Virus record (IMG/VR): IMGVR_UViG_3300045988_170240
Source: a virus
Direction: 5' to 3' (one strand)
DNA length: 38,977 nucleotides
A program made the translations under genes and the position numbers. This document shows positions 18,621 to 38,977 of the stretch, piece by piece. Each line of letters starts with the position of its first letter. The first letter of the stretch is position 1. Below the pieces are notes generated by a model. The model saw nothing but the letters and a program-made list of their open reading frames with translations, had not been told where the DNA came from and ran no database searches.

Positions 18621-19545
18621 TAACGTGTTTAAGAACCGTTATGTTTGGGACGGTTCACAAACCAACTTCCCAATTTCATTCCCATTCCTCGATAACAGCC
18701 ATATCCAGGTATGGTATGCTATGCCGGGTAAGCCGGATACTGACGCGGCCATTTTGGACCAGCAATATTATTCGGTTACTGGAGCCGGCAATCCTGTAGG
18801 TGGTGTTCTCACGCGTACTAAGCCATGGGATGTTGGTGCTATCATTGCTATCGTGCGAAATGTACCTATCACGCAGTTGCATCAGTACACGCAGTATGAC
18901 AACTTCCCCGCCAAGTCGCATGAAGATGCCTTGGCCAAACTGACAATGATTTGTCAGCAATTGGATGAAATCTGCTCGCGTGCGATGACTGTGCCGGTCA
19001 CGTCTGAGAAAAACCCCCAGGAATACTGGCAGCATATCCTCGAACAGAACCAAATTGCTCTTGAAGCATCCTTGCGTGCTGTTGCTGCTGCTGAACAAGC
19101 TGAGACTTGTAAGACACAAGCTTGCCGGTGTGCAACGGAAGCTCAAGAAATCCGGTCTGAACTTTTCGGCCTATCCTTCTCCGCACATCTTTCCCCGTCT
19201 CCCAATGTTGCGGTCCAGTACACGCCGGAAACGGGGATGGTACATTTCTATGTTCCCCCAGGGCCGCAGGGGCCACAGGGTAACCCTGGTATTGGACTTA
19301 TAGGCGAAAGAGGACCTATAGGTGAAAAAGGAGATAAAGGAGATAAAGGAGAAAAGGGAGATCAAGGAAATCCTGCTCCGGCTGGCGAACGTGGGGAAAA
19401 AGGCCCTATGGGTGATGCGCCATGGGCTACCTGTTTTGGACATTTCCGCCTTTCCGGTGCTGATCTTCTTCTCGACTACACAGGGGCGACACTGGATTCA
19501 GCTTTTTCTGTCAACGCCAATGGGCAACTTGAGGTAACATTCTGA
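18607..19545 (+). CDS. Tail fibre protein with a collagen-like Gly-X-Y run (about 17 triplets: GPQGPQGNPGIGLIGERGPIGEKGDKGDKGEKGDQGNP...)
   Basis: Collagen-like repeat read in translation; tandem 9-bp DNA repeats ggagataaa at 19320-19375. Confidence 0.6.
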   Translation: MLISNNVFKNRYVWDGSQTNFPISFPFLDNSHIQVWYAMPGKPDTDAAILDQQYYSVTGAGNPVGGVLTRTKPWDVGAIIAIVRNVPITQLHQYTQYDNFPAKSHEDALAKLTMICQQLDEICSRAMTVPVTSEKNPQEYWQHILEQNQIALEASLRAVAAAEQAETCKTQACRCATEAQEIRSELFGLSFSAHLSPSPNVAVQYTPETGMVHFYVPPGPQGPQGNPGIGLIGERGPIGEKGDKGDKGEKGDQGNPAPAGERGEKGPMGDAPWATCFGHFRLSGADLLLDYTGATLDSAFSVNANGQLEVTF

Positions 19546-20651
19546 TGCCTACTCTTAATCTCGGACAAGTACGTCCAGTTTATCGCGGCGCTTGGAATTC
19601 TATAGACACGTATGTCACATATGATTTTGTTATTTATAACGGTTCTGCATATTTGGCATTGAAAGACGTTCCAGCCAATTATGAACCGCCTAGTCAGACT
19701 GAGTATTGGGTTCTCTTCGGTGCAAAAGGCGAACCTGGCGCACGGGGTGCAGACGGGGCAGACGGGGCACAGGGTGAGCGTGGACCCTCTCCGGCATACC
19801 GCTGGGATGGTACTTTTTTGTCAATACAAAACCCTGACGGAACATTTCCCGATCAGGGTGTAAACTTACAAGGCCCTGCCGTACCGCTTTCTAATAGCGT
19901 CACAAGTACAAGTGAAACTGACGCTGCTTCTTCATTGGCTGTAAAAACGGCCTATGATGCCGCCAAATCCAATTTGTCACTGTCCGGCGGGACAGTGACT
20001 GGAAGTCTTTCGATCAAGAATATGCTTGATACCATCGGGACTGCGCCAGCTACGGAGCAAGAACTTGGGCTGTACAATCTCGATAAAAATGGCAATATCA
20101 TGGGAGGCCATGATTTTGTACATAATACGGAGAACCTTAAAGTTTCTCAGATGTATGCTCGAAACAGCAGCGGTTTGATTTCTTCCCTGGGTGTTTATGC
20201 CGAAGAAGACGGAACGCGGTACACGTTGTCGTCACACAACTTGATTTTGACAAGCGATGTCGAGATTGGACGGTTATATGCTGACGGCGTAAGGCTCATA
20301 ACATTTTCGGGAACAAAAAGCAGCCCCGGCCTTACGATGCGGTACAGCCCGGATAACGGTGAGCTATATCTCGACGGCAGAGCCATACATGGGAAAGCAG
20401 ATACGGCAAAAAATGCCGATTTTGCGACTGAGGCACAGAACAGCTACGGGCTCAAAGGCATGGATATGATCATTGCAAAACAGACGCATACATTACCTGG
20501 GTACGGTACGTGGAAATACATGTATTTTATTGCTGACAGTGAACATTTTTATGATGTAGTCATAGGCGAAGATCCGGGTGGAACCGTTTTGTCGGTGTCA
20601 GCTTGGGGGAGCTCCGCTTTCATGGACGGGATAGCTTTCAGAAGCGCATAG
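19545..20651 (+). CDS. Second tail fibre / receptor-binding protein with a collagen-like run (GAKGEPGARGADGADGAQGERGPS)
   Basis: ATGA overlap with the upstream fibre gene; fibre-like N-terminal region YRGAWNSIDTYVTYDFVIYNGSAY. Confidence 0.55.
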   Translation: MPTLNLGQVRPVYRGAWNSIDTYVTYDFVIYNGSAYLALKDVPANYEPPSQTEYWVLFGAKGEPGARGADGADGAQGERGPSPAYRWDGTFLSIQNPDGTFPDQGVNLQGPAVPLSNSVTSTSETDAASSLAVKTAYDAAKSNLSLSGGTVTGSLSIKNMLDTIGTAPATEQELGLYNLDKNGNIMGGHDFVHNTENLKVSQMYARNSSGLISSLGVYAEEDGTRYTLSSHNLILTSDVEIGRLYADGVRLITFSGTKSSPGLTMRYSPDNGELYLDGRAIHGKADTAKNADFATEAQNSYGLKGMDMIIAKQTHTLPGYGTWKYMYFIADSEHFYDVVIGEDPGGTVLSVSAWGSSAFMDGIAFRSA

Positions 20652-20661
20652 GAGAAGCAAA

Positions 20662-21093
20662 ATGGCGAAAGACTACGGAACCATCATCTACAGAAAAGAG
20701 ACACGCTCATACGTTGTCGGTAAGCTCTGCGTGCCGCATCCCGATGATGATAATGTCCCCGATGAAGTACGCCGTCAGTTCTCAGCACTGTGGGCTGATG
20801 TCGATGCTTATGCAAAAGCGCATCCGGACATGGTGACGGAAGAGCAAGCATACGTCCCGCCCGTACCGACAGTAAAAGAACTTGCGGCTCGCGTACGTGC
20901 CGAGCGTAATAGACGCATCACCGCAACAGATTACCTTGTCATGCCTGACTATCCTCTTGATACTGACAAGCTTGAAGAGATCAAGGTGTATCGGCAAGCG
21001 CTCCGCGATTTGCCGCAACAGCCGGGGTTCCCGTGGGGTGGGCCGGATGATCCTGCCTGCCCGTGGCCTGTAGTGCCTATCCTTAATAGGTAA
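20662..21093 (+). CDS. Tail fibre assembly chaperone (Tfa-like, 143 aa)
   Basis: C-terminal motif TDYLVMPDYPL...YRQALRDLPQQPGFPW characteristic of caudoviral tail-fibre assembly proteins. Confidence 0.65.
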   Translation: MAKDYGTIIYRKETRSYVVGKLCVPHPDDDNVPDEVRRQFSALWADVDAYAKAHPDMVTEEQAYVPPVPTVKELAARVRAERNRRITATDYLVMPDYPLDTDKLEEIKVYRQALRDLPQQPGFPWGGPDDPACPWPVVPILNR

Positions 21094-21097
21094 CGCT

Positions 21098-21235
21098 ATG
21101 GCAAACAGAACGCAGATACTTAACACGGCACTGATGCGTGCCGGGGCGCAGGACATCAACCTAGCGTTTCAGGATACACCAGCGGTACAGGCGGTAGAGG
21201 AAGTGACCCGGCGAATTCAGTATTCACATGATTAA
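21098..21235 (+). CDS. Possible small ORF (45 aa) ending inside the left 32-bp cassette-boundary repeat
   Basis: ATG with weak AGGT upstream; below the 60-aa ORF-track threshold. Confidence 0.25.
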   Translation: MANRTQILNTALMRAGAQDINLAFQDTPAVQAVEEVTRRIQYSHD

Positions 21236-21250
21236 GGGGTAACTGATGAA

Positions 21251-21634
21251 ATGGGCGGTATCATTAACAATATTATCATGTGCGCAGACGATTTTCCTGA
21301 AGCGCCCAATGAGCGTATTGATATTACTTCTAGCCCTTGGCTTCGTATAGGAGATCCCATTGATTTGGAAGATCCTTCGACCATTGAATTGGAGACGATT
21401 GAAGCGCGTGAGCAAGAGTTTATGGCAAGGATGGACAATCTTGACAAACAGCAAATTCGTCCATTAGCCACACTCTATGTACTTAAACAAGCGTCACCAG
21501 AAGACGAGAATATTTTGTATATGGCTGAGATGCAGAAACAGGCATATAGGAATGTGCACGATGAACTTATGATTACGGCGATTCGTGACTGGCAACCGAT
21601 CGTCGAAGCCGAATATGTGCGAATCACGTCATAA
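21251..21634 (+). CDS. Acidic hypothetical protein (127 aa); first gene of the repeat-flanked cassette
   Basis: ORF; an alternative ATG at 21246 opens a different frame (34-aa hydrophobic peptide). Confidence 0.45.
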   Translation: MGGIINNIIMCADDFPEAPNERIDITSSPWLRIGDPIDLEDPSTIELETIEAREQEFMARMDNLDKQQIRPLATLYVLKQASPEDENILYMAEMQKQAYRNVHDELMITAIRDWQPIVEAEYVRITS

Positions 21635-21752
21635 TTAAATATTCTCTACGAGAAATGTCTGAGAAAAATAATGTACAAATCCCAGACATTGTGGTATTAT
21701 ACTAACAATGTCTGGGCTATCCCATAACCCTGTAACATGTAGGAGGTTTGTA

Positions 21753-22685
21753 ATGTTCAAGTATGCACCGGGTATGGAATCCGGTCTTGGCGCGACTCTT
21801 AACATGATGCGTAAGCATGCGGAGCCCGATGGTGACGAGGGAACTACTGTTACCAACATTTTTAACATGGAAGACAAGGAGTCTGGTATAAACGACATCG
21901 CTGGCCTTATGGCACTCATGCAGAACAACAAGGGTATGGACCTTCCCGGCATTCTCGCGCTTTGTCAGCAGAAGGGCTACGGCCGTGAAGGCGGCGGTTG
22001 GGGCGACGGCATGGGTCTGCTCGTCATCCTGTTGTTCTTCCTCATGTTCAACAACGGTGGTTGGGGCAATAATGGCAACAAGGCCTGTGCTGAAGGTCTG
22101 GTCGGCGCCGATAACTGCCAGCGTATCATTGGTCTGTATGACCGCATTTCCGCCGCTCAGGCTGCAAGCACTCAGGGCTTCTTCCAGCTCGACACCAAGC
22201 TGTGTTCGTCCATTGCCGAAGTCATCGCGTCCGTGCGCAACCAGGGTGACCGCACCTACGATGCCACGCGCAACGTGGGCGACGCCGTGCGCGATTGCTG
22301 CTGCAAGGTTGAAGCACAGCTTGCTACCGTATTGTGCGAAATCCGTGGTGTCCAGCGTGATATCCGCGAATCCTCCGGCCTCATCAACGCCAAGATTGAG
22401 CTTGAAGCCCTGAAGGCTGAAAATGCCCGTGCCGCTATGGAATGCCGCCTTGTGCAGGCCCAGAAGGACTGCTGCTGCGAAATGAACCAGCGGTTTGACC
22501 GCCTCGATTGCAAGCTGGACAACATGCAGCGTGACAGCGAAATTGCTCGCCTGACGCGCGAAAATGAAGCGCTCAAGAACAAGGCCATTGCCGATTCCAC
22601 GGCCGCCTCGGTTGTGCAGTCCCTGCAGGACTTCGCCATCAGCCACTATAAGCCCACTCAGACTGCTACGGCTCCGACCGCGTAA
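21753..22685 (+). CDS. Membrane-anchored coiled-coil protein (310 aa) with two D-C-C-C motifs
   Basis: RBS AGGAGG before ATG 21753; central hydrophobic segment GMGLLVILLFFLMFNNGGWG; C-terminal coiled-coil repeats each containing a DCCCK/DCCCE motif. Confidence 0.5.
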   Translation: MFKYAPGMESGLGATLNMMRKHAEPDGDEGTTVTNIFNMEDKESGINDIAGLMALMQNNKGMDLPGILALCQQKGYGREGGGWGDGMGLLVILLFFLMFNNGGWGNNGNKACAEGLVGADNCQRIIGLYDRISAAQAASTQGFFQLDTKLCSSIAEVIASVRNQGDRTYDATRNVGDAVRDCCCKVEAQLATVLCEIRGVQRDIRESSGLINAKIELEALKAENARAAMECRLVQAQKDCCCEMNQRFDRLDCKLDNMQRDSEIARLTRENEALKNKAIADSTAASVVQSLQDFAISHYKPTQTATAPTA

Positions 22686-22697
22686 GGGAGGTAGCCA

Positions 22698-23300
22698 ATG
22701 GCAGAAGATCAGGGGTATCGGGGACCTTTTGCTCCGACGAGTCCTGCTCCTAAGCAGGGCTTCGCACACAATGAGGAATCCTCCCATGAACGTAGGAAGG
22801 AATACCGTGATCAGGGCTCGTTGTTTACGTATGTCCCGAATGGCGGTGAAGTAGAACCCCAACACCAACACCATGACCGTGAACGTGAACATGACCGTCG
22901 CGATGATCGCAGAGATGAACGTCGCAACGACCGTTATGATGATCGCCGTGATTGGAACCAAGACCGGTATTCGGAAAGGTCTGAACATCCGTTCAAGGAA
23001 CTGATGGGCATAGTGCGACCCCTTATCAAGGACTTGAGAGAGTCCTATGGTAAAAAGAATGAATACGCCAACGAAAAGGGATTCGACGATATTGAACGTA
23101 TCGAAGATGAACTTGAAGGTTGGTTGGGGTACCGAGATCTGGCGAAAAAGGATCCGCGTTACAAGCATGTGTCGAAGCAGGAATTCGGCCATATGCTTCT
23201 CGCAATTCAGGATCTCCTTCAATACATTTACGAGGAAACTCGTGAAAATCCTGAAGAACACCAGGAACTGTACAACTTCATTCACATGATTAAGGGGTAA
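22698..23300 (+). CDS. Highly charged protein (200 aa) with an RD/RE dipeptide repeat tract (HDREREHDRRDDRRDERRNDRYDDRRD)
   Basis: RBS AAGGGAGG; low-complexity Arg/Asp repeat read in translation. Confidence 0.5.
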   Translation: MAEDQGYRGPFAPTSPAPKQGFAHNEESSHERRKEYRDQGSLFTYVPNGGEVEPQHQHHDREREHDRRDDRRDERRNDRYDDRRDWNQDRYSERSEHPFKELMGIVRPLIKDLRESYGKKNEYANEKGFDDIERIEDELEGWLGYRDLAKKDPRYKHVSKQEFGHMLLAIQDLLQYIYEETRENPEEHQELYNFIHMIKG

Positions 23301-23303
23301 GTG

Positions 23304-23750
23304 ATGGAATGGCCCAGACAGCTGCTCGATAAGGTGGAAGAGTTTGAAGGCTTCAGTGAAAAGCCATATATCTGTCCAGCCGGATATTGGACTATCGGCT
23401 TTGGCACTCTCTGTGATAAATCGCATGCTCCTGTGACCAGAGAAGAAGCCGAGGCCTTGCTCATTGAAGAGCTGGACAGATGTTATAATGAAGCACTCAT
23501 CCAGTGCTCAGTGCTTCGCAAAGAGCCTGCTCATCGCGCTCAGGCTATTGCGGTATGGATGCACAATCTTGGCTCTGGAGCTTTTGCCTCTTCCACTTTC
23601 AAAAAGAAGGTGAATGCAAAAGAATGGTATGATGCCGCTCGTGAAATGATTCGTTGGACTAAGGCCACAGTGAAAGGCCAAAAGGTCGAACTTGGTGGGC
23701 TGGTTCGGCGGAGATTTTACGAGGCAAGCGTCTTCCTGAATGGTGCGTAA
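23304..23750 (+). CDS. Endolysin, T4-lysozyme-like GH24 muramidase (148 aa from ATG 23304; the track start 23301 is GTG)
   Basis: N-terminal catalytic region EFEGFSEKPYICPAGYWTIGFGT typical of phage lysozymes. Confidence 0.8.
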   Translation: MEWPRQLLDKVEEFEGFSEKPYICPAGYWTIGFGTLCDKSHAPVTREEAEALLIEELDRCYNEALIQCSVLRKEPAHRAQAIAVWMHNLGSGAFASSTFKKKVNAKEWYDAAREMIRWTKATVKGQKVELGGLVRRRFYEASVFLNGA

Positions 23751-24111
23751 AATGAGTATCCATGATATCTCAATAGATACATGGTTAGTCATTTGTAACA
23801 TTGTCTGGGCGCTAGTTGTCTGGGCCATGAAACGCGAGGTCATTATCATAAAAAGTGACCTCATAACTAAAGACGAGTTTGATTCTTATACGTCATTTGA
23901 AGATGCTGAACGTGAATCCTTAAGAAAGGATATGCACGCAATGGAAATAGAAGCTGCTCGAACTAAGGCGATTCTCGAGCAGCTTCCAACCAAGGATGAT
24001 ATTATAGATATCCAGACTCGTTTGCAAACTCTTTCAGAGCATTTAACAGTTGTTGCTGCGTCGTGTCCTTCCGAGTTAAGGTGCTCAGCACGCGATCATC
24101 AACGGTCTTAG
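23740..24111 (+). CDS. Lysis-associated membrane protein: N-terminal TM helix plus charged coiled-coil (i-spanin-like or holin-like), 123 aa
   Basis: TM segment TWLVICNIVWALVVWAM followed by a charged helical region and a C-terminal Cys pair; overlaps the lysozyme stop. Confidence 0.45.
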   Translation: MVRKMSIHDISIDTWLVICNIVWALVVWAMKREVIIIKSDLITKDEFDSYTSFEDAERESLRKDMHAMEIEAARTKAILEQLPTKDDIIDIQTRLQTLSEHLTVVAASCPSELRCSARDHQRS

Positions 24112-25333
24112 GAATTATTATATGGTCGACTAGCACCGGTTTGGTTTGTCCAGGCCGGCGCAGTCGACCATTTAATTGTTGATAGGTTTCGAGGGACCAA
24201 GTAAGTCCAAGCCAGCATATGCGGTGACCGCCATACTGTAGATTAAGGCCGTGGGATAATGAATTGGGGTGACAGAAAAGTACAGGGAGATTTCCTTTGT
24301 TCCATTCATGAACGTACTGCTTAGACAATTCGGTAGGAGTGCCCCCAATAATAGCTGGCGCCTCTGGAAGTCTCTTTCTAATTTCGATAAGTTCACTTCT
24401 AAACTGAATGGGAACGAGCATGGGATCGCCAGCTGCTTCCTCAATTCGGTCAAAGAGGGTATCCACTTTTGCGGTATTATCGAATATAATGTTACGCTGC
24501 TCGTCATAGATAGAACCTTGTAAGAGCTGGCGTAACCGTAATGAGAGTATTCCAGCAGTAGCTGCCGTAAGAGTACTTTCATTTGCAAGAGTCGTAATAA
24601 ATTCTGTCTGAAACTCTTTATATCGTTGCATGGACGCTGGAGGGAGATATGCGGGAATAGATGAAAAGATGTATGGTTCAAGTTTAAGATAGTCATTTGC
24701 ATCCAACCTGAAAGTTATATCTTTAATTTTATCAATCACAATATCCATTGCACCGTCGTTCTCAATCCATATGAATCTATCAATTTGAATATGATAGGTC
24801 ATCATGAATTGAGTTTTCTTTTTTCCAAGGCGCTCTCCATCATCCAAAAGAAAATACTGCGACCACAAATCTCGTACGCCATTTGGTGCGGGAGTTCCTG
24901 ATAGGGCATATGCGCGTTTAAAAAGTCGTTTAAACTCTTTCATGAGTTTGAAGCGTTTAGAACTAGAATCCTTGAGCTTTGTCATTTCATCCCAGATAAT
25001 CATGCCATCACGCATATAATTGGTCATTTCAATGGTCCAAGCCTTGCTCAACCAGTTGATACCATCATAATTTATGATATACACATCAAGACCTGGTTGC
25101 AAGTATCTTGTCTTTCCATGAAGTACTTGATACTTAAGATCAGGTCGCCATTTAGCTATTTCTTCAGGCCACGTAATAGCGGCTACAGTAAGAGGTGCAA
25201 ATATGATTGTGGGACGATCAATCATATGAAGTAGAATTGCGGTCTTTCCCATGCTCATATCGACAGCAAAATATCCTACATCATGGCTATTGCCCCATTC
25301 TACAGCCTTTTTCTGATAATCACGAAGTTCCAT
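24002..25333 (-). CDS. SNF2-family DNA-dependent ATPase/helicase (about 443 aa from ATG 25333; ORF-track start 25399 is a TTG)
   Basis: Motifs DYQ, Walker A DMSMGKT, DEMT (motif II), SGTPAPN (motif III), QLNGRLRRPGQ (motif VI). Confidence 0.75.
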   Translation of the reverse strand: MELRDYQKKAVEWGNSHDVGYFAVDMSMGKTAILLHMIDRPTIIFAPLTVAAITWPEEIAKWRPDLKYQVLHGKTRYLQPGLDVYIINYDGINWLSKAWTIEMTNYMRDGMIIWDEMTKLKDSSSKRFKLMKEFKRLFKRAYALSGTPAPNGVRDLWSQYFLLDDGERLGKKKTQFMMTYHIQIDRFIWIENDGAMDIVIDKIKDITFRLDANDYLKLEPYIFSSIPAYLPPASMQRYKEFQTEFITTLANESTLTAATAGILSLRLRQLLQGSIYDEQRNIIFDNTAKVDTLFDRIEEAAGDPMLVPIQFRSELIEIRKRLPEAPAIIGGTPTELSKQYVHEWNKGNLPVLFCHPNSLSHGLNLQYGGHRICWLGLTWSLETYQQLNGRLRRPGQTKPVLVDHIIIPKTVDDRVLSTLTRKDTTQQQLLNALKEFANESGYL

Positions 25334-25363
25334 AGTGCTTAACTCATTGGTATATATGACAAA

Positions 25364-25450
25364 CTCTATAGAACTCTTCTCAATTTTCACGCGATACAAT
25401 ATTCACGCTTTTCATTTTAAAGAGTTCTATAGAGTTCTATAATTAGTTCA
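25364..25450. promoter_or_regulatory. Second cluster of the AGTTCTATAG-family motif (ctctatagaactc 25364-25376; tandem agagttctat x2 then aattagttca at 25421-25450) between the 118-aa gene and the SNF2 helicase
   Basis: Read directly; same motif family as 2721-2995 and 471-483. Confidence 0.55.
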
Positions 25451-38858: not shown

Positions 38859-38977
38859 CTTTTTTTTTATTTAAGTATTTCAACCCTTTATCGGGCGCTC
38901 AGTTAATTCAGGTAGTTACGGAGAATACAATAATTTCAGGTATTTAAAAATGCTTAGTTAAATCAGGTGCTTTGGAC
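38859..38977. repeat. Right direct terminal repeat, identical to 1-119
   Basis: Exact match to the window start. Confidence 0.85.

Follow-up and report, generated by a model that had tools for sequence, protein, structure and literature searches.

How did the virus genome recorded in IMG/VR as IMGVR_UViG_3300045988_170240 come to carry nearly the same short sequence at both ends of a 2-kb interval lying between its tail-fiber chaperone and its endolysin? The record is a complete phage genome of ∼38.9 kb, and the whole 38,977-nt stretch of DNA that was analyzed is referred to here as the window. Three proteins are encoded in the interval: an acidic protein of 127 aa (p127), a membrane-anchored coiled-coil protein with two DCCC motifs (CC), and a highly charged protein with an RD/RE repeat tract (RD/RE). 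The original prediction, made from the sequence alone, described these three genes accurately and read them as a cassette, or moron, acquired by recombination between gene-boundary sequences and possibly serving in antidefense or superinfection exclusion. Close relatives of the window are numerous in IMG/VR and in public assemblies, and comparison with them points to another history. In our assessment, the repeats most likely arose through a series of recombination events at the right edge of the tail-fiber module and do not mark the ends of a cassette; p127, CC, and RD/RE are resident genes of this phage lineage.

The direct repeat was confirmed and proved to extend one base further than first described. 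It comprises 33 nt of the form ATTCACATGATTAAGGGGTAA(C/G)TGATG(A/G)AATGG, with 31 of 33 positions identical between copies (previously 30 of 32 over 32 bp) and a spacing of 2058 nt (positions of all features are collected in Table 1). A 20-nt core of the repeat has exactly two matches in the window, even when three mismatches are allowed, and none of 100 shuffles contained two or more core matches; the repeat is therefore neither a chance similarity nor a generic ribosome-binding site (RBS) motif. Also borne out was the description of each copy as ending one gene, with stops in different frames, and supplying the RBS and ATG of the next. Copy 2 is the native junction of RD/RE and the endolysin. 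It holds the last 7 RD/RE codons (..IHMIKG and the stop, TAA, at 23298-23300), the sequence AAGGGG, and the first 3 endolysin codons, ATG GAA TGG (ATG at 23304). Copy 1 is a displaced duplicate of this junction. Its TAA (21233-21235) ends a 45-codon open reading frame (ORF) in a frame differing from that of the copy 2 stop, and AAGGGG is followed by two ATGs. The first of these (21246, 6 nt past AAGGGG) is endolysin derived and opens an out-of-frame 34-codon ORF, which is an artifact of the junction; the second (21251, 11 nt past AAGGGG) starts the 127-aa ORF. At the two variable positions, copy 1 reads C/A and copy 2 reads G/G.

That copy 2 occupies the native position is apparent from relatives with a different fiber. 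Four IMG/VR contigs that are 93 to 98% identical to the window lose homology to it at ∼19140, inside a fiber gene, and regain it at exactly 21254. In genomes of this arrangement, designated type A (L004, L005, and L006, with L083 and L086 added later), the gene order is a large LPD38 protein, a Gly-rich fiber of 1308 to 1314 aa, a protein of 135 or 139 aa (p135 or p139), CC, RD/RE, and the endolysin. Type-A genomes contain one 33-mer only, at the RD/RE-endolysin boundary, and the position of copy 2 is that of the sole 33-mer in every one of them as well as in the hybrid genome L078 described below. Since homology resumes inside the first gene of the interval (21254/21255), the replaced block is the fiber module to the left (19143-21253, comprising the fiber C terminus, a second fiber, a PF16778 chaperone, the 45-codon ORF termed orf45, and copy 1) and not the 2-kb interval. 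Type A is apparently the original arrangement of the lineage, and at least three alternative modules are found on the same backbone: the long Gly-rich fiber, collagen fibers with a chaperone, and a pectate-lyase tailspike.

The acidic protein, proposed earlier as an accessory gene, is instead a truncated fiber-partner gene. p127 (pI 4.25; GC content, 0.435) equals type-A p135 minus its first 8 residues and its own RBS. Full type-A forms of 135 or 139 aa start MKVMAILDKGG... (MKVMAILDKGGIINN... in the 135-aa form), and the start codon of p127 was made by the junction, from the second and third codons of the endolysin. In every type-A locus, p135 lies directly 3′ of the long Gly-rich fiber. A 68%-identical homolog of p135 is found in an unrelated, SU10-like phage of ∼62 kb, directly after a ∼1060-aa protein that is homologous to the long fiber (32% identity over ∼990 aa, with the Gly-rich C terminus best conserved). 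p135 belongs to the old fiber module and is inherited together with the fiber, a context that suggests a fiber partner or assembly factor; in the window, p127 is an orphaned fiber-partner gene with a makeshift start. Searches of Pfam, PHROGs, and NCBIfam gave no match for p127/p135, a PDB sequence search was empty, and the AlphaFold model of p135 (predicted local distance difference test score [pLDDT], 76) had no Foldseek match at an E value of ≤0.001 in the PDB or BFVD. The idea that p135 is a divergent PF16778 chaperone was rejected on the basis of a profile-profile comparison with the chaperones of these loci (probability, 0.7%). Variants of the gene include frameshifted forms (P0133 and P0134) and an intact recombinant (P0126).

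The fiber module to the left of the interval carries traces of both of its joins. Its left edge falls within fiber protein 1, in which a conserved N-terminal anchor of the T7 type is followed by a swapped-in, collagen-like C-terminal part. Over its first 186 aa, the protein is 84 to 85% identical to the long fiber of type-A relatives, and from nucleotide 19078 onward the gene is 87% identical to that of a donor lineage (L013). Homology to type A stops at 19133-19142 and homology to the donor lineage starts at 19078, which delimits the left crossover zone. Type A, the window, and the donor lineage all share a conserved island within this zone, GCTGAGACTTG...CTTGCCAGTGTGCA (window ∼19093-19140), which falls just past the retained N-terminal ∼186 residues. 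Fiber protein 2 is not present in type-A relatives, and its C terminus varies across window-type genomes (protein lengths of 258, 275, 332, and 368 aa).

At the right edge of the module, orf45 is probably not a gene but an artifact of a junction. Its N terminus, MANRTQIINTALMRAGAQDINIAFQDTPAAQ..., begins a 201-aa protein in L013, L014, and L030, members of a different phage lineage that carry a collagen-type fiber part, a second fiber, a chaperone, the 201-aa adaptor-like gene, and a 712-aa nozzle-like gene (PF25675). The 5′ part of this stub occurs in more than one version (MANRTQILN.. versus MSQNRTAIIN..), and the stub is kept behind differing receptor-binding modules. A search for a full-length allele of the 201-aa gene containing the sequence that follows the stub in the window returned the L026 contig and chance matches only. 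This following sequence is probably a relic of the original long-fiber gene, to which it aligns at the exact point where, in L078, the stub meets the fiber's last 138 codons. Copy 1 is thus flanked on the left by the stub and the putative ∼29-nt relic and on the right by p135 codon 10.

Hybrid and empty arrangements are found among the relatives as well. In the first hybrid, L078, the foreign module and stub are joined at GGTAGAGGAAGTG, a 13-mer common to the stub and the long-fiber gene, to the last 138 codons of the long fiber, which are followed by full-length p135, CC, RD/RE, and the endolysin, with one 33-mer. The original prediction had also anticipated single-copy relatives in which the chaperone region runs into the endolysin, and two were found. 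In L026, which has collagen fibers, the stub and relic lead through a single 33-mer straight into the endolysin, which there starts MKWPRQ; the alleles of this junction are C/A, matching copy 1 of the window. L082, which has a tailspike with an S74 domain, shares the layout of L026 with alleles G/G. A search of IMG/VR for further empty-site or L078-type junctions gave none besides L026. The window type is represented by L071 and 10 further independent assemblies, all with the identical junction, both repeat copies, and the same allele pattern, and the junction was seen at this locus only. Three different kinds of receptor-binding module stand ahead of it, the genomes having collagen fibers with four different second fibers or a pectate-lyase tailspike. 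Among individual variants, P0136 and the frameshifted P0157 have a pectate-lyase tailspike fragment whose in-frame fusion partner is RD/RE, beginning at about residue 14, and P0016 has a CC-RD/RE fusion. The locus collects recombination scars.

Recurrence of the junction bears directly on whether it could be an assembly chimera or the similarity of the copies a matter of chance, for which we see a virtually negligible probability. The window is indeed an uncultured, assembled genome, mixtures of type-A and empty-type strains co-occur, and several contigs derive from the same IMG sample (3300045988). However, the putative parents share only ∼2 nt at the join of copy 1 and p127, so k-mer misjoining cannot create the junction, and the identical junction recurs in no fewer than 11 assemblies, which come from different studies and were made with different assemblers. 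Chance similarity is excluded by the shuffles described above.

Taken in order, the arrangements most parsimoniously fit a path of four steps. The starting point would be type A, with the long Gly-rich fiber, p135, CC, RD/RE, and the endolysin. In a second step, leading to the L078 type, a foreign module (collagen-like part, second fiber, and chaperone) would have been joined on the left by homologous recombination and on the right through 13-nt microhomology, dragging in ∼31 codons of the donor's next gene. A deletion from the fiber relic to 21 nt before the RD/RE stop would then have produced the empty type. The last step would have led to the window form, in which an empty-type left arm, extending through endolysin nucleotide 9, is joined at 2-nt (GG) microhomology to p135 codon 10 of a cassette-bearing genome; this join duplicates the 33-mer and gives a new ATG to a p135 shortened by 8 residues. 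Such a path explains why copy 1 contains endolysin codons and the L026 alleles and why the p127 start derives from endolysin codons 2 and 3. We infer the order of events to be original, L078 type, empty, and window type. The conserved stub, the comparison suggests, now acts as a right-hand homology arm for further fiber swaps with donor-type phages. The interval can probably be lost again through the repeats, because ∼30 nt of identity is close to the reported minimum for phage recombinases (De Paepe et al. 2014, PMC3945230).

That same length of identity, together with the proneness of the interval to deletion, would also serve a one-step origin, which we regard as unlikely. Here, an L078-type genome would have lost the relic and the first 9 p135 codons in a slippage or template switch that copied 33 nt from 2 kb downstream, and the empty genomes would have arisen later by deletion between the repeats. 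L082, with its stub flank, G/G alleles, and endolysin, is exactly what a crossover between the left 21 nt of the two repeats would yield. L026, on the other hand, has C/A alleles fused to the endolysin; to produce these, the crossover would have to fall in the final 5 nt of the repeat. Moreover, events that insert 33 nt from a template are rarer in kind than two simple joins. Two empty genomes make a weak test of the one-step against the stepwise origin.

Several points weigh against the stepwise origin and the gene roles that accompany it. Polarity is unproven, as the event order rests on parsimony and on just two empty-site genomes. The relic was assigned from an identity of 24/29 in which the differences include a 9-nt cluster, and the exact fiber allele was not found. 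No similarity of p135 to known fiber chaperones could be detected in sequence or in fold, and its role is taken from gene context. The window-type genomes were collected through exact-protein look-up, which makes their uniformity partly a sampling effect. Any function of CC and RD/RE is conjectural, and the promoter call discussed below is a weak consensus match: three promoter-like matches were found in the region, compared to 4.7 expected, and thus no excess.

Whatever the path, CC and RD/RE behave like a mobile, dispensable, moron-like, bicistronic accessory pair. CC has one hydrophobic segment (residues ∼87 to 104), a long helical C-terminal part, and 13 Cys residues; its homologs, none with an annotated domain, fall into 114 clusters at 50% identity, and an N-terminal motif, the transmembrane (TM) segment, and both DCCC motifs are invariant in the family alignment. 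The gene is compositionally foreign, with a GC content of 0.567 (genome, 0.459) and a GC content at third codon positions (GC3) of 0.682 (neighboring genes, 0.38 to 0.53). The comparison of composition with the flanks that had been put forward as a check therefore sets CC apart and leaves p127, which is not deviant, undistinguished. At five distant phage loci (L008, L072, L101, L102, and L104), genes of 92 to 111 aa lie 10 to 25 nt after the CC homolog, and their products match RD/RE over its C-terminal ∼75 residues. What is conserved, therefore, is CC together with a small helical partner; the N-terminal, RD/RE-repeat half of the window protein is a variable, lineage-specific extension, and length variants of the protein occur.

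In otherwise complete genomes (∼39 kb), CC and RD/RE are often shortened, split, fused, or deleted; they are reduced to a 50- to 65-aa fusion in L003, L077, and L079 and are wholly missing in L026 and L082. An in-frame deletion (L003, 1140-1337; L077, 5844-6029; L079, 5845-5997; window, 21845/23230) has its ends in CC codon ∼30 and RD/RE codon ∼180, which meet at the microhomology ACGAGGnAACT. The deletion is found in genomes with different p135/p139 alleles and must therefore be recurrent or have spread by recombination. The absences of CC and RD/RE in close relatives look like deletions, not primitive empty sites.

Distant CC homologs are always preceded by a noncoding gap, with a divergent gene in L104. 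In the window, the corresponding gap of 118 nt contains a promoter-like site, and CC and RD/RE may have their own promoter, judging from the sequence. A perfect 12-bp palindrome overlapping this site could be an operator or an RNA hairpin. An 11/12 copy of the palindrome arm is present at 23798-23809, inside the gene downstream of the endolysin (p123); the arm was considered as a genome-wide regulatory motif and rejected (6 matches, compared to 3.2 expected). No terminator-like site was found on the plus strand between 22685 and 23304, and RD/RE directly adjoins the endolysin, the two sharing an RBS region. An antisense ORF of 569 aa (21717-23426, minus strand), to which a 568-aa ORF in L004 corresponds, spans CC and RD/RE and probably results from the high GC3 of the sense genes; coding on the plus strand is backed by the family alignment.

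With these data, the moron model can be divided into a part that holds and a part that does not. CC and RD/RE are dispensable and some relatives lack them, but they do not form a three-gene unit with p127 and were not inserted via two repeats. In its strict form, as a self-contained three-gene moron inserted through gene-boundary recombination with antidefense or exclusion functions, the model is quite improbable. Single-copy empty sites do exist, the foreign composition of CC and the position of the dispensable pair just upstream of the lysis genes agree with the model, and the window form probably regained the interval from an empty form. Nevertheless, the left end of the interval is p135 codon 10 and the gene continues leftward in type A, so the left join was not made via a repeat; the first gene is part of the old fiber module; and type-A genomes hold the genes with one repeat, an arrangement that, like that of L078, already contradicts the strict model. 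No terminator and no match to a defense or antidefense family was found.

The proposal of an antidefense or superinfection-exclusion module found no support in any of the PADLOC, Pfam, PHROGs, NCBIfam, PDB, or fold searches, all of which were uninformative. Comparison of CC, RD/RE, and p127/p135 to PADLOC, Pfam, PHROGs, and NCBIfam returned nothing beyond phrog_16490, a family of unknown function, and coiled-coil matches at noise level, and PDB sequence searches with the interval proteins gave nothing. PADLOC produced only JetA (E = 0.0032) over the coiled coil of CC and nothing for the other proteins, with no dedicated antidefense library searched; the JetA match was dismissed as coiled-coil noise. 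A deep profile search with CC retrieved more relatives, none with an informative domain, and the AlphaFold model of CC (pLDDT, 56; long helices) was too poor for a fold search. Judged from the anchoring of CC in the membrane, its Cys-rich coiled coil, and the neighborhood, CC and its partner may, with low confidence, act at the envelope late in infection, in lysis timing or in the exclusion of other phages.

A filled site flanked by two copies and empty sites with one would also suit att-like or target-duplication sites of an element moved by a recombinase, transposase, or homing endonuclease. This we find scarcely credible. No recombinase, transposase, HNH/LAGLIDADG, or homing nuclease domain is present in any ORF of 20600-24100, the interval does not end discretely on the left, the repeat amounts to no more than the end of one gene with the start of the following one, and the unit was never found elsewhere. 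Lacking a recombinase and discrete ends, the interval is not a mobile element, and neither it nor the repeats reveal a new class of genetic element.

Two related proposals reach further and are, taken jointly, tentative and rather doubtful: one is that CC and its ∼90-aa partner constitute a new, widespread phage accessory system acting at the envelope, for instance by blocking superinfecting phages or tuning lysis, the other that the stub and duplicated junction form a selected docking site for the capture of fiber modules from an unrelated lineage. CC and its partner always occur together; nearly all of the contigs that carry them are from phages, and genes for receptor-binding or ejection proteins are the usual neighbors. 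If the first proposal were true, repeated loss and regain of the CC pair alongside fiber swaps would reflect host-dependent selection. Among species-representative bacterial and archaeal genomes, the sole CC homolog is on a 64-kb contig (L105; JAFQBW010000009.1) that was binned as a Methanocorpusculum metagenome-assembled genome from goat caecum and is likely a misbinned phage contig. On the 66-kb phage contig L072 (2943-6796), a diversity-generating retroelement (Mtd-like target and reverse transcriptase) lies upstream of a PF16778 chaperone and a CC homolog.

Table 1. Positions of genes, repeats, and other features between the tail-fiber module and the endolysin of the window
Feature	Position	Strand	Evidence or description
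Fiber protein 1, 312 aa	18607-19545	+	Weak Pfam matches to PF03906 and Collagen
Left crossover zone of the fiber-module exchange, homologous join	19078-19142	.	Homology overlap
Fiber protein 2, 368 aa, imported module	19545-20651	+	PF03406 Phage_fiber_2
Tail-fiber assembly chaperone, 143 aa, imported module	20662-21093	+	PF16778, E = 5.6e-24; phrog_4912
orf45, 5′ stub (∼31 codons) of foreign 201-aa adaptor-like gene, then junction sequence	21098-21235	+	Homology ends at ∼21190
Probable relic of original long-fiber gene	21193-21221	.	GGTAGAGGAAGTGACCCGGCGAATTCAGT, 24/29 identical to long-fiber gene
Repeat copy 1	21222-21254	+	Displaced duplicate of RD/RE-endolysin junction; 31/33 identical to copy 2
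p127, 5′-truncated p135, partner gene of lost long Gly-rich fiber	21251-21634	+	Type-A forms of 135/139 aa
Promoter-like site of the extended −10 type, TGTACA-17 nt-TGgTATTAT	21672-21700	+	Consensus match only, in gap before CC
Perfect 12-bp palindrome, CCCAGACATTGT-N12-ACAATGTCTGGG	21681-21716		Overlaps promoter-like site
CC, 310-aa membrane-anchored Cys-rich coiled coil	21753-22685	+	276 homologs
RD/RE protein, 200 aa	22698-23300	+	HDREREHDRRDDRRDERRNDRYDDRRD tract; C-terminal ∼75 aa is conserved CC-partner domain
Repeat copy 2	23280-23312	+	Native junction: last 7 RD/RE codons, RBS, first 3 endolysin codons
Endolysin, 148 aa	23304-23750	+	PF00959, E = 5e-27

The endolysin stop overlaps the start of the next gene downstream, p123 (23740-24111), which at its 3′ end shares 110 nt with the convergent gene of an SNF2 helicase (24002-25399, minus strand). 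With an N-terminal TM segment and a coiled coil, p123 is a candidate holin or i-spanin; no embedded lipoprotein ORF was seen in it.

The phage itself is extremely common in metagenomes, its exact endolysin sequence being indexed in 2393 blocks of public assemblies. No close cultured relative was detected, the nearest having <40% identity. The portal is 37% identical to those of Pelagibacter podophages, and DNA polymerase A is 33% identical to that of an uncultured Caudoviricetes record (Manatee Spring) and ∼31% identical to those of Brevundimonas phages. Searches of annotated phage genomes, by DNA with the region and by tblastn with CC, gave no match. The phage looks virulent type and is not known to be temperate. 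At its ends, the window has an exact terminal repeat of 119 bp (1-119 and 38859-38977) with an 84% copy at 143-261, and the 18-mer AATAATTTCAGGTAYTTR occurs at 71, 213, and 336, a pattern that resembles a genome terminus with internal tandem-like copies.

Among known systems, the closest comparison is phage mosaicism. Hendrix and colleagues are said to have described phage evolution as modular, with mosaics arising by relaxed homologous and illegitimate recombination. In a published study, most phage mosaics had a homology trace on one side only, phage genomes usually lacked repeated sequences, and recent mosaics were rare among virulent phages (De Paepe et al. 2014, PMC3945230). The locus in the window is alike in having one homology-assisted join (19078-19142) and one nonhomologous join, both near gene boundaries, with stubs left behind. 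It differs in that most of the proposed intermediates (original, hybrid, empty, and refilled) survive in public assemblies, in that the process made a 33-nt direct repeat, and in that the phage looks virulent type.

The exchanged proteins also invite comparison with the receptor-binding proteins of T7-like and other podophages, which have a conserved N-terminal anchor and an exchangeable distal part. In keeping with this, the N-terminal ∼186 aa of the fiber are kept here and all distal parts are exchanged. Unlike in the general case, the right boundary is a captured stub of a donor gene, and the old fiber partner survives as a truncated orphan.

Morons, reportedly defined by Juhala et al. in 2000 as extra transcription units inserted between conserved phage genes, share several traits with CC and RD/RE. 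These genes are missing in some close relatives, deviate in GC content, follow a noncoding gap with a promoter-like site, and recur beside tail genes in unrelated phages. In contrast to morons, no terminator was found, the promoter is only predicted, the absences are deletion-like, and the phage is not known to be temperate; CC and RD/RE therefore meet only part of the definition. A further comparison is with Rz-type i-spanins, which are membrane-anchored periplasmic coiled coils with intermolecular disulfides. CC likewise carries a single TM segment, ahead of a Cys-containing coiled coil of ∼200 residues, and lies in the neighborhood of an endolysin. However, a conserved N-terminal domain of 85 residues precedes its TM segment, CC and the i-spanins are not similar in sequence, a lipoprotein partner is absent (the partner RD/RE has no signal or lipobox), and CC is deleted in viable-looking natural genomes. 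The comparison flags CC and its partner as a conserved, uncharacterized two-gene module.

Set against these systems, the event at this locus is ordinary phage mosaicism, unusually well documented, in a very abundant uncultured phage. It provides a natural record of how a receptor-binding module changes: through a homologous join and an illegitimate join, with stubs that may later become homology arms and with apparent loss and regain of the neighboring genes. The boundaries of natural swaps are thereby pinpointed in a common uncultured lineage, which bears on the engineering of phage host range.

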